Assembly (NCBI RefSeq): GCF_003334335.1
Contig: NZ_QOWQ01000185.1
Direction: 5' to 3' (one strand)
Source of the DNA: Escherichia coli
Lineage (GTDB): Bacteria > Pseudomonadota > Gammaproteobacteria > Enterobacterales > Enterobacteriaceae
Length of the DNA stretch: 480 bases
Part shown: positions 1 to 480 of the stretch, piece after piece
Numbering within the stretch: position 1 is the first letter of the stretch
Layout of the letters: every line of letters begins with the position of its first letter
The notes under the pieces: model-generated
Told to the model about the DNA's origin: nothing
The model's input: the letters and a program-made list of their open reading frames with translations, nothing else
Database searches by the model: none
Program-made: the position numbers and the translations under genes

Positions 1-395
1 CCCAGTGCCTGTACCAGACGTTCCGTGATAAGGCGGTCTGCCTTGCTGGGTGTGACTTCACCGGACGGGTGATTGTGTGCCAGCACCACAGCAGCGGCAT
101 TGTGATACAGGGCGCGTTTAATCACTTCACGGGGATGGACTTCCGTGCGGTTGATGGTGCCGGTGAAGAGGGTTTCACCGGCAATCAGCTGATTCTGGTT
201 GTTCAGATACAGCACCCGGAACTCTTCACGCTCCAGTCCCGCCATGTTCAGAATCAGCCATTCTCGTGCCGCACGGGTGGAGGTGAAGGCCACGCCGGGT
301 TCATGAAGATGGCGGTCCAGGGTTTTCAGGGCCCGTTGAATGAGGCTGCGCTCGCCGGGCGTCATCGCGCCGGGCAGAAAGGAAAGCTGTTGCAT
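1..395 (-). CDS. yeeS: RadC-like JAB/MPN-domain protein (UPF0758 family), N-terminal 131 codons; C-terminus lies beyond position 1
   Basis: Minus-strand ORF starting at ATG (plus coords 393-395) and open to the window edge. Translation: MQQLSFLPGAMTPGERSLIQRALKTLDRHLHEPGVAFTSTRAAREWLILNMAGLEREEFRVLYLNNQNQLIAGETLFTGTINRTEVHPREVIKRALYHNAAAVVLAHNHPSGEVTPSKADRLITERLVQAL(G). It contains the JAMM signature H-x-H-x7-S-x2-D (HNHPSGEVTPSKAD) typical of RadC/JAB proteins. A GGAGAG Shine-Dalgarno lies 7 nt upstream of the ATG. From memory the sequence closely resembles E. coli YeeS, but the paralogs YkfG and YfjY are very similar and I cannot tell them apart without a search, so the symbol is tentative. 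An alternative in-frame ATG at 408-410 would add MERST to the N-terminus. Confidence 0.85.
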   Translation of the reverse strand, partial: MQQLSFLPGAMTPGERSLIQRALKTLDRHLHEPGVAFTSTRAAREWLILNMAGLEREEFRVLYLNNQNQLIAGETLFTGTINRTEVHPREVIKRALYHNAAAVVLAHNHPSGEVTPSKADRLITERLVQAL

Positions 396-402
396 TGTAC
401 TT

Positions 403-408
403 CTCTCC
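403..408 (-). promoter_or_regulatory. Shine-Dalgarno / ribosome-binding site for the RadC-like CDS
   Basis: Minus-strand GGAGAG (plus-strand CTCTCC at 403-408), followed by a 7-nt spacer (AAGTACA) and then the ATG at 393-395. Sequence and spacing are canonical. Confidence 0.7.
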
Positions 409-410
409 AT

Positions 411-480
411 TCAGTCGATGATGCGCATAATGGCGCTGCATTCCGGATGCTGCAGGGCGTAATCCCGCAGCCGGTAATAA
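411..480 (-). CDS. 3' end of upstream co-directional gene; probably an antirestriction protein of the KlcA/ArdB-like YfjX/YafX family (assigned by synteny)
   Basis: Minus-strand frame is open from the window edge to a TGA stop at plus coords 411-413. Translation of the tail: YYRLRDYALQHPECSAIMRIID*. It is in the same orientation as the RadC-like gene and 15 bp upstream of its start. The family assignment rests on the conserved gene order antirestriction -> radC-like in CP4-57 and CP4-6 type islands (established knowledge), not on recognising these 22 residues. In K-12 CP4-44 the gene at this position is yeeR instead. Confidence 0.5.
   Translation of the reverse strand, partial: YYRLRDYALQHPECSAIMRIID

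Follow-up and report, generated by a model that had tools for sequence, protein, structure and literature searches.

Junction of ardB and a RadC-family JAB gene in a common Escherichia coli genomic-island operon: probably independent items of a carry-on kit

The window analysed here, i.e., the whole 480-nt stretch of DNA, is the place where ardB meets yeeS in a genomic-island operon that is very common in E. coli. The two genes are indeed paired there, yet this is already annotated and known. In the loci that we compared, the JAB gene (yeeS) kept company with the DUF987 and CbtA-type toxin cassette more persistently than with ardB. We consider that ardB and yeeS are probably co-transcribed members of a carry-on kit that function independently of each other. 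The junction is an ordinary, annotated one at which two old open questions meet: the role of RadC-family JAB proteins and the means by which ArdB and KlcA block restriction without DNA mimicry.

The window was 100% identical to the chromosome of E. coli EC416, where the match lies inside a complete CP4-44/Ag43-type island, and full-length genes and proteins were read from that chromosome (locus L001). Both the ardB-type gene and the JAB gene lie on the minus strand of the window, and the features are as follows:

414-479, minus strand: last 22 codons of the ardB-type anti-restriction gene (...YYRLRDYALQHPECSAIMRIID), from the translation and full-length matches; base 480 is the final base of the preceding codon
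L001:14585-15070: the full ardB-type gene, 161 aa
411-413, minus strand: ardB stop codon TGA, identical in L005, L006, L007 and L010
396-410, minus strand: intergenic spacer of 15 nt, with the ribosome-binding site GGAGAG at 408-403, 7 nt before the JAB ATG
1-395, minus strand: yeeS-type short RadC-family JAB gene, codons 1-131 of 158, with its ATG at 395-393; it runs off the window at base 1
243-359, minus strand: two predicted N-terminal helices of the JAB protein (residues 13-31 and 40-51), from an AlphaFold model with pLDDT 88
126-128, minus strand: Glu90 codon of the HPRE motif, the putative catalytic Glu of the JAMM site, read from the sequence and conserved in at least 90% of 32 homologues
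36-77, minus strand: zinc-site motif H107-N-H109-PSGEVTP-S117-KA-D120 (HxH-x7-S-xx-D), from sequence and alignment

Since the window carries just 14% of the upstream gene, that gene cannot be identified from the window alone. A sequence-only reading of the window had supposed it to be of the KlcA/ArdB type, and full-length analysis bore this out, showing the gene to be an antirestriction homologue. The full-length protein matched the Pfam family Antirestrict (PF03230; E 3e-37, model positions 1-92 of 92), the ArdB of CFT073 (PDB 2WJ9; E 3e-100 over residues 1-161, with few mismatches), KlcA (2KMG; E 5e-21), and phrog_10132, "anti-restriction protein" (E 1e-63). It is small and acidic (161 aa, pI 4.74, with a DDDDDE run), and we counted its length as agreeing with the ~135-160 aa of the family. 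An NCBIfam search of the ArdB, DUF932, DUF987, and DUF905 proteins assigned no family. ArdB_CFT, YafX, and YfjX, each expressed singly, showed anti-restriction activity (Type I) in vivo, and ArdB did not inhibit EcoKI in vitro (PMC2836571). By likeness to the near-identical ArdB_CFT orthologue and to YafX and YfjX, the ArdB of the window would be expected to have anti-restriction activity.

The JAB protein matched Pfam RadC (PF04002; E 1.7e-44, model positions 2-121 of 121) and TIGR00608 (149.6 bits, above the cut-off of 133.85), and was 99.3% identical to K-12 YeeS, 81.6% to YkfG, and 73.1% to LfgB/YfjY. All five residues of the zinc motif (E90, H107, H109, S117, and D120) fall within the window. 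In an alignment of 32 sequences with ~40-50% identity (A1), H107, H109, S117, and D120 were invariant and E90 was present in at least 90%. With its E...HxH-x7-S-xx-D motif complete, the protein is predicted to be catalytically intact, as had been proposed. Its AlphaFold model closely matched the RadC structure 2QLC (Foldseek E 3.5e-14, TM 0.89, rmsd 1.6 Å).

In EC416, ardB and yeeS belong to a same-strand operon of ~3.9 kb with the order DUF932, ardB, yeeS, yeeT (DUF987), cbeA-type antitoxin, cbtA-type toxin, DUF5983, and DUF957; the genes from ardB to the CbtA-type toxin, with the RadC-JAB, DUF987, and YeeU-type antitoxin genes between them, span L001:14585-16841. Strong terminator-like hairpins at L001:13634-13663 and 17563-17589 bound this one predicted 8-gene operon, and no comparably strong hairpin was found between L001:13663 and 17563. 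Within the CP4-44/Ag43-type integrative islands of E. coli, the operon occupies the outer end, and the genes past DUF957 in the EC416 copy are pseudogene fragments. In K-12, the paralogues form the lfgABCDE operon, in which an lfgA::kan insertion is polar on lfgB (PMC10846083), and yafX-ykfG-ykfH-yafW-ykfI is seemingly a single operon (PMC5371832). The 15-nt spacer with its own ribosome-binding site, the lack of a strong internal hairpin, and the K-12 paralogue operon together support the earlier claim that the linkage is tight and probably co-transcribed. A sigma-70 consensus scan of the gene strand over L001:12700-18000 returned no promoter-like site, so the operon promoter was not located; in CP4-57, the MqsA-binding site of the operon promoter region was reported ~245 bp upstream of lfgA (PMC10846083). 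Scanning L001:12700-18000 against Rfam with E values of up to 1 allowed gave one far sub-threshold chance match and no RNA element.

The ardB-JAB junction is no chance feature. Of 5,426 complete E. coli genomes, 4,422 (81%) matched a 125-nt probe spanning it, at 11,921 places in total and with up to 12 copies per genome. Both genes are under purifying selection (dN/dS ~0.09-0.26). The length of the spacer is conserved though its sequence diverges, with 15 nt and a purine-rich ribosome-binding site also found in E. albertii, Yersinia, and Enterobacter loci, so that the 15-nt spacing holds over four genera; in K-12 the spacer is 15 nt in CP4-6 and 8 nt in CP4-57. The two genes share a reading frame, and both domains occur together in a few database proteins. 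We rejected stop-codon readthrough or a natural ArdB-JAB fusion, since the two-domain database proteins are singletons (stop-to-Arg changes, in-frame deletions, and frameshifts) and the Yersinia spacer holds an in-frame TAA.

The sequence-only reading had named co-occurrence of RadC-like JAB genes with antirestriction genes across mobile elements as a check, and for ArdB the link was confined to one clade. ArdB was adjacent in 13 of the 14 loci whose JAB protein was at least 58% identical to the query (the enterobacterial YeeS/YkfG/LfgB clade), in 2 of 90 more distant short-RadC loci, and in none of 54 housekeeping RadC loci. The distant context was obtained from an exhaustive representative search and two locus scans; word-indexed protein searches returned close E. 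coli relatives only. An ArdB HMM rebuilt with KlcA, L019, and L145 revealed no additional ArdB neighbours. Elsewhere, the partner of short RadC was DUF3085, DUF2787, ArdC, or nothing recurrent. On a PromA-type plasmid radC lies 1.4 kb from ardC, and on IncF plasmids no RadC is annotated within 8 kb of the ArdB-family gene. Plasmids positive for RadC numbered 2,334 and those positive for ArdB 4,649. The clade-specific link argues against reading a RadC gene beside an anti-restriction gene as a general signature of anti-defence.

The tie to the toxin cassette was the more persistent. The 14 closest loci held CbtA in 14, YeeU in 13, DUF987 in 13, and ArdB in 13. At 50-55% JAB identity, three loci (L012, L098, and L099) had the order RadC-YeeU-CbtA without ardB. 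At L009, where ardB is also missing, a CbtA-like gene directly followed the JAB gene. In K-12 CP4-44, ardB was lost and yeeS-yeeT-cbeA-cbtA was kept. The JAB-DUF987 junction occurred at 12,834 places in 4,796 E. coli genomes, i.e., in more genomes than the ardB-JAB junction. This more persistent tie, together with the clade-specific link to ardB, narrows the search for the substrate of the JAB enzyme. Database proteins that one source names YeeU-type antitoxin are annotated with the Pfam family PF06154.

These counts bear on a reading in which the JAB enzyme works with the downstream type IV toxin-antitoxin cassette (DUF987, CbeA, and CbtA), e.g., as a protease or hydrolase controlling the antitoxin level, and ardB is a passenger. 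The persistence of the cassette beside the JAB gene, including in K-12 after the loss of ardB, favors it, as does the paralogue LfgB, for which degradation of the host antitoxin MqsA (in the context of a stress response) and peptidase action on casein have been reported (PMC10846083). Against it, co-expression of three upstream genes left the toxicity of YkfI and YpjF unchanged (PMC5371832), 87 of the 90 distant short-RadC loci have no CbtA-type gene, and the LfgB protease evidence is weak: digestion was overnight, the protease section describes no catalytic mutant, and its authors state that contaminating proteases were not strictly ruled out (PMC10846083). We therefore regard this reading as unlikely. 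The same report bears on the earlier suggestion that the JAB protein processes a host protein. A precedent for it does stand, in that the 73%-identical LfgB was reported to degrade MqsA, but the setting was one of stress and contaminants are possible. The sequence-only reading had gone further, proposing that ArdB and the JAB protein act together when the element enters a new host. Such a device for anti-restriction or establishment would have two parts, with the JAB protein processing some protein, of the host or of the element, on which ArdB depends or acts. The near-invariant adjacency of the genes in E. coli, their conserved spacing and co-transcription, the RadC-ArdC fusions of Firmicutes and fusobacteria (PMC3239186), and the proximity of radC to ardC on the PromA-type plasmid are all in its favor. 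However, the linkage is limited to one clade (13 of 14 loci vs. 2 of 90), cloned ArdB and KlcA work alone (PMC2836571), and R64 ArdB directly inhibits BlihIA in vitro (PMC12429846). Furthermore, the JAB gene is kept without ardB at some loci and has other partners elsewhere, the IncF homologues of ArdB have no RadC annotated nearby, and the pOXA-48 genes lie 6.6 kb apart with the JAB gene paired to DUF3085. An AlphaFold model of an ArdB-linker-YeeS fusion had a pTM of 0.49 with both domains individually confident, a crude result from six paired sequences and no inter-domain error map. A direct ArdB-YeeS complex was thus rejected as a candidate on what is a weak negative from modelling only, and joint action of the two proteins in such a device appears improbable to us.

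Two further readings concern the JAB fold and the state of the element. If YeeS were a JAMM isopeptidase stripping ubiquitin-like conjugates, it might counter conjugation-dependent defence (e.g., CBASS-type or Bil/Bub-type), and both the intact JAMM zinc motif and a weak fold likeness to the JAB subunits of BubCD, Rpn11, and CSN5 (E 3e-3 to 2e-2, TM 0.37-0.44) would be in keeping with this. We consider it very unlikely, considering that the sole strong structural match is RadC 2QLC, that RadC-type JAB domains are reported to be without a groove for the ubiquitin tail (PMC5512222), that no ubiquitin-like, E1, or E2 gene occurs among the 34 annotated features in 30 kb, and that PADLOC matched none of the 10 module proteins. 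A reading of the pair as the decaying, now functionless remains of a cryptic element would accord with the naming of these elements as cryptic prophages, with the loss of ardB and the shortening of yeeS by 10 codons in K-12 CP4-44, and with the pseudogene fragments after DUF957 in EC416. This we find scarcely credible, given dN/dS values of ~0.1-0.26 for both genes, the intact motif, the thousands of intact copies, and the complemented stress phenotypes of an lfgB deletion (PMC10846083).

We thus favor co-transcribed, functionally independent items of a kit, which would comprise an anti-restriction gene, a zinc hydrolase, a toxin-antitoxin pair, and a methylase-like gene, and which would be common to islands and conjugative plasmids. 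ArdB may handle host restriction upon arrival of the element, and YeeS may be a separate zinc-dependent hydrolase with an unsettled substrate. One report, that of the paralogue LfgB degrading antitoxin MqsA, would suggest a protein, and domain fusions and a multicopy mutator phenotype would point to a nucleic acid; in evolution, YeeS would be bound most tightly to the DUF987 and CbtA-type toxin genes downstream rather than to ardB. The 30 kb of island examined showed neither a relaxase gene nor transfer genes, so use on arrival in a new host is a putative role only. Against independence, the near-invariant E. coli junction and the 15-nt spacing in four genera could also be expected of two genes that function as a pair. 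ArdB was assayed in vivo in K-12-type hosts, and as K-12 carries yeeS, ykfG, and lfgB, a resident RadC-type protein may have been present; likewise, the failure of ArdB against EcoKI in vitro leaves room for a cofactor. It is conceivable, though we would give it little credence, that the short RadC-type JAB protein acts on products of its own operon, either as the in vivo cofactor of ArdB or as a hydrolase removing the CbeA-type antitoxin to release CbtA. A JAB cofactor would explain why Type I restriction is blocked in cells but not with purified EcoKI.

Comparison with known systems places the window among close relatives. The K-12 pairs lfgA-lfgB (yfjX-yfjY) of CP4-57, already so named (PMC10846083), and yafX-ykfG of CP4-6 share with it the gene order ardB, RadC-like JAB, DUF987, antitoxin, and toxin, at 68-70% identity for ArdB and 73-82% for the JAB protein. 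Unlike these pairs, the copy in the window belongs to the CP4-44/Ag43 island lineage, in its complete form; in the CP4-44 of K-12, a deletion took ardB and the first 10 yeeS codons. Compared with the ArdB (ORF14) of pathogenicity island II of E. coli CFT073 (2WJ9), the upstream protein is near-identical from residue 25 onward and differs markedly solely in its Ser/Thr-rich N-terminal 24 residues. The JAB protein shares the JAB core and zinc motif with housekeeping RadC/YicR (PRK00024; structure 2QLC), but it scored 159.8 bits, under the PRK00024 equivalog cut-off of 180, and its predicted N-terminal helices occupy the place of the helix-hairpin-helix domain, with an HMM of the housekeeping N-terminal domain finding no match in it. 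Moreover, housekeeping RadC adjoins dfp, rpmB, and rpmG, whereas the JAB gene of the window lies on a mobile element among island genes.

On transmissible elements, RadC-type JAB domains have been linked with anti-restriction and with DNA entry (PMC3239186, PMC5512222), and in Firmicutes and fusobacteria they are fused to the ArdC anti-restriction module (PMC3239186). In contrast to the ArdC-RadC association, the JAB protein of the window stands alone beside an ArdB-type protein, with no fusion, on a non-conjugative integrative island. The leading regions of plasmids hold anti-defence islands with klcA, toxin-antitoxin genes, and methylases (Samuel and Burstein, 2024; PMC11541004), in the main text of which report RadC does not occur. 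The gene cluster around the window would resemble these in part, with a toxin-antitoxin pair and a methylase-like gene on the strand of its ArdB/KlcA anti-restriction gene; what the island carries on one strand is the anti-restriction gene, the toxin-antitoxin pair, and a DUF4942 remnant. As a further likeness, on an IncF conjugative plasmid SSB and PsiB share a same-strand region with DUF905 and a gene of the ArdB family. The cluster differs in that no SSB, PsiB, oriT, or relaxase lies near the operon in the 30-kb segment. The entire module is found on the conjugative IncHI1B/FIB plasmid p_b127b_NDM1, at 61% amino-acid identity. Finally, the DUF3085-RadC pair of pOXA-48-like and other broad-host-range plasmids likewise joins a short RadC-type JAB gene, on a conjugative plasmid, to a small upstream partner gene (PMC12826799), but that partner is DUF3085, not ArdB, and in the pOXA-48 family klcA lies ~6.6 kb away.

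The minus strand of the window carries the end of the ardB-type gene and the beginning of the JAB gene.

Features of the window
479..414, minus strand: last 22 residues of the ardB-type gene by translation (...YYRLRDYALQHPECSAIMRIID)
413..411, minus strand: stop codon TGA of the ardB-type gene
410..396, minus strand: 15-nt intergenic spacer, with GGAGAG seven bases ahead of the JAB-gene ATG
395..393, minus strand: start ATG of the JAB gene, 131 codons from the ATG and open at the window edge

Plus-strand ORFs of the window were rejected as short antisense artefacts, and an Rfam scan of 5.3 kb around it returned no RNA elements. 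A purine-rich ribosome-binding site and the exact 15-nt stop-to-start distance were found in E. coli, E. albertii, Yersinia and Enterobacter loci, the spacer sequence itself varying. In K-12 the spacer measures 15 nt in CP4-6 and 8 nt in CP4-57, and a conserved 72-aa ORF of unassigned function separates the two genes on the IncHI1B plasmid (L003:5741-5959) and in one Enterobacter copy (L008:3311-3529); the tight junction is therefore not universal even inside the module (ardB, JAB, DUF987, antitoxin and toxin genes). The two genes share one reading frame, with the TGA plus five codons between them (396-413). The few two-domain ArdB-JAB proteins in the database were discounted, all being singletons produced by a stop-to-Arg change (P0025), in-frame deletions (P0047, P0059 and P0084) or frameshifts (P0039). 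Since the Yersinia spacer holds an in-frame TAA, readthrough is not a conserved feature.

The sequence-only reading hinged on an antirestriction gene upstream, and full-length matches bear out the KlcA/ArdB type that it had supposed. The encoded protein (161 aa, pI 4.7) matches Pfam Antirestrict end to end (E 3e-37), the crystallised ArdB of CFT073 (2WJ9, E 3e-100), KlcA (2KMG, E 5e-21) and the PHROG 'anti-restriction protein', and shares 70% identity with LfgA/YfjX and 68% with YafX. The JAB protein (158 aa) matches Pfam RadC (E 2e-44), scores above the TIGR00608 cut-off and below that of the housekeeping RadC equivalog, is without the helix-hairpin-helix domain found in housekeeping RadC, and shares 99.3% identity with K-12 YeeS, 81.6% with YkfG and 73.1% with LfgB/YfjY. 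Its zinc motif, also called intact from the window, is so by alignment: 32 homologues (about 40-50% identity) show no variation at H107, H109, S117 and D120, and at least 90% of them keep E90, all five residues lying inside the window. A confident model of the protein (pLDDT 88) gave a strong structural match only to RadC 2QLC (TM 0.89), ubiquitin-type JAB proteases and deaminases reaching marginal scores only. RadC-type JAB proteins have been argued to be without a ubiquitin-tail groove and more likely to be nucleic-acid-processing enzymes (PMC3239186, PMC5512222), and a 2025 review describes RadC catalysis as still uncharacterised (PMC11981726).

At 100% identity, the window matches the E. 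coli EC416 chromosome, where it belongs to a complete CP4-44/Ag43-type island. One strand there encodes a GTPase, Ag43, an 840-aa protein, IrmA, DUF905, DUF932, an 'antirestriction protein', yeeS (JAB domain-containing protein), yeeT (DUF987), a YeeU-family antitoxin, a CbtA-family toxin, DUF5983 and DUF957, followed by pseudogene fragments and the core nan and fim genes. One annotated fragment 3' of DUF957 (within L001:17620-17873, EC416) is a match to DUF4942, a methylase-like family with intact members in other module copies (L005, L009, L012, L096 and L097). In K-12 CP4-44 (L172) everything between yeeR and codon 11 of yeeS is deleted, the irmA-to-ardB segment included, and yeeS (6309-6755) is a truncated copy without its first 10 codons that overlaps the yeeR end. 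Strong terminator-like hairpins lie just before DUF932 (L001:13634-13663) and after DUF957 (17563-17589), with none comparable between 13663 and 17563. Published data on the K-12 paralogues fit a single transcription unit. The promoter region of the 'lfgABCDE operon' contains an MqsA-binding site some 245 bp ahead of lfgA, and inserting a kanamycin marker into lfgA has a polar effect on lfgB (PMC10846083); Wen et al. treated yafX-ykfG-ykfH-yafW-ykfI as what seems to be a single operon (PMC5371832). In EC416 (L001:13664-17900), CP4-6 (L170) and CP4-57 (L171) the operon lies at the extreme end of its island, with transcription directed outward; next to it are, respectively, the core nan/fim genes, thrW (about 380 nt off) and the annotated prophage end (about 190 nt off). 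An unannotated 37-codon ORF (L001:15846-15959; MFRHPENEYDWLSSDAAVDEVLLINEYTFTEAGLRAG), whose start codon shares the final base of the yeeT stop (TGATG), occupies some of the 162 nt between yeeT and yeeU; a search of all the compared loci gave one weak relative (L093, 51% identity).

Probes were matched against 5,426 complete E. coli genomes. A 125-nt probe across the ardB-JAB junction hit 11,921 places in 4,422 genomes (median 3, maximum 12 copies per genome), the 480-nt window, mostly JAB, 12,887 places in 4,797 (median 2, maximum 13), and a JAB-DUF987 junction probe 12,834 places in 4,796 (median 2, maximum 14). Some genomes, e.g., H175 (NZ_AP045773.1), carry 11-14 junction copies, so that the module forms a sizeable family of dispersed repeats in a single chromosome. 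The sole junction match in the phage collection, at 95% identity, was OR844783.1 (H43; 'Escherichia phage ECO111 5-P'), an unannotated 3,236-bp GenBank record. Values of dN/dS were 0.09-0.26 for ardB and the JAB gene; in the unsaturated Yersinia/Enterobacter pair each gene gave 0.10.

The pairing of ardB with a JAB gene is thus real, and is already annotated and partly studied as lfgA/lfgB, yafX/ykfG and ardB/yeeS. Co-occurrence, the check that the sequence-only reading had proposed, was gauged by searching one genome per species, and separately viral contigs, with a profile built from short RadC homologues (80 loci returned each); ArdB-family genes were sought within 8 kb using an ArdB/KlcA HMM, to which KlcA and the two distant matches were later added. 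The genome loci comprised 54 long housekeeping RadC genes, which have the N-terminal domain and either lie beside dfp/rpmB/rpmG or share a conserved Comamonadaceae context, and 26 short ones without the helix-hairpin-helix domain; 78 of the 80 viral loci had the short form. An ArdB-family gene accompanied 13 of 14 short loci whose JAB protein was at least 58% identical to the query, all of the enterobacterial module, vs 2 of 90 more distant short loci (a Steroidobacteraceae ArdB-DUF932-RadC arrangement and one opposite-strand case) and 0 of 54 long loci, an association specific to the close clade. Partners at the distant loci were AlpA (9), DUF2787 (6), DUF932 (4), CbtA/YeeU (3), DUF4942 (3), ParB (3), DUF3085 (1) and ArdC (0), none recurring often. 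Vibrionaceae short RadC genes (L044, L045, L047, L080 and L081; about 7,600-9,400 in each) have a different fixed context: a divergent AlpA-type excisionase/regulator upstream in 4/5 (not called in L081) and two tandem DUF2787 genes downstream, the first overlapping the RadC stop by 4 nt in 4/5. Among plasmid records, mostly conjugative, 2,334 had RadC homologues and 4,649 ArdB/KlcA homologues. pOXA-48 has DUF3085 and then a JAB gene, klcA lying about 6.6 kb off in that family; a PromA-type plasmid has radC near ardC; and no RadC annotation lay within 8 kb of an ArdB-family gene on the IncF plasmids examined. The entire module, at 61% identity, is also found on a conjugative IncHI1B/FIB plasmid, where two small ORFs are inserted, one of them between ardB and radC.

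Joint action of ArdB and the JAB enzyme on entry into a new host, as the sequence-only reading proposed, is not supported by these loci, by the literature on ArdB alone or by modelling. ArdB_CFT, YafX and YfjX, proteins of this module type, each alone alleviate all four Type I families in vivo, with no inhibition of EcoKI in vitro (PMC2836571); R64 ArdB directly inhibits another Type I enzyme in vitro (PMC12429846). An AlphaFold model of ArdB(25-161)-(GGGGS)6-YeeS, built with six paired rows plus unpaired homologues, gave confident individual domains and an overall pTM of 0.49, weak negative evidence regarding a fixed complex. For the JAB partner, K-12 tolerates peroxide, acid and heat less well when LfgB/YfjY is deleted; purified LfgB broke down casein and, overnight, MqsA, other proteases not being strictly excluded by the authors, who report very poor solubility and whose protease section describes no catalytic mutant (PMC10846083). 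Multicopy yfjY has been cited as a mutator. Taken together, the two genes are taken to be co-transcribed, with functions that are probably independent.

The JAB gene is still joined to the downstream cassette without ardB in K-12 CP4-44, Yersinia (L009), Pectobacterium (L012) and two viral contigs (L098 and L099), and therefore DUF987 and the CbtA-type toxin cassette, not ardB, are its most persistent partner. No ArdB-family gene was found in the Yersinia and Pectobacterium versions, where the upstream position (L009:7221-7712 and L012:7090-7650) is taken by a gene whose 163-186-aa product starts with a signal-peptide-like segment, matches phrog_3429 (unknown function) and has no Pfam domain. 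In Yersinia (L009:7944-8832) a CbtA-like toxin gene comes 88 nt after the JAB gene, with no recognisable YeeU-type antitoxin or DUF987 gene between them. For the toxins YkfI and YpjF, co-expression of the three upstream genes brought no neutralisation (PMC5371832). A functional tie of the JAB enzyme to the toxin-antitoxin cassette is the main alternative and seems unlikely to us; independent functions within one transcript remain our preferred reading. The broader part of the original proposal holds up better: the operon may reasonably be regarded as an anti-defence, establishment or stabilisation kit, in keeping with its presence on a conjugative plasmid and its likeness to the leading-region anti-defence islands of plasmids.
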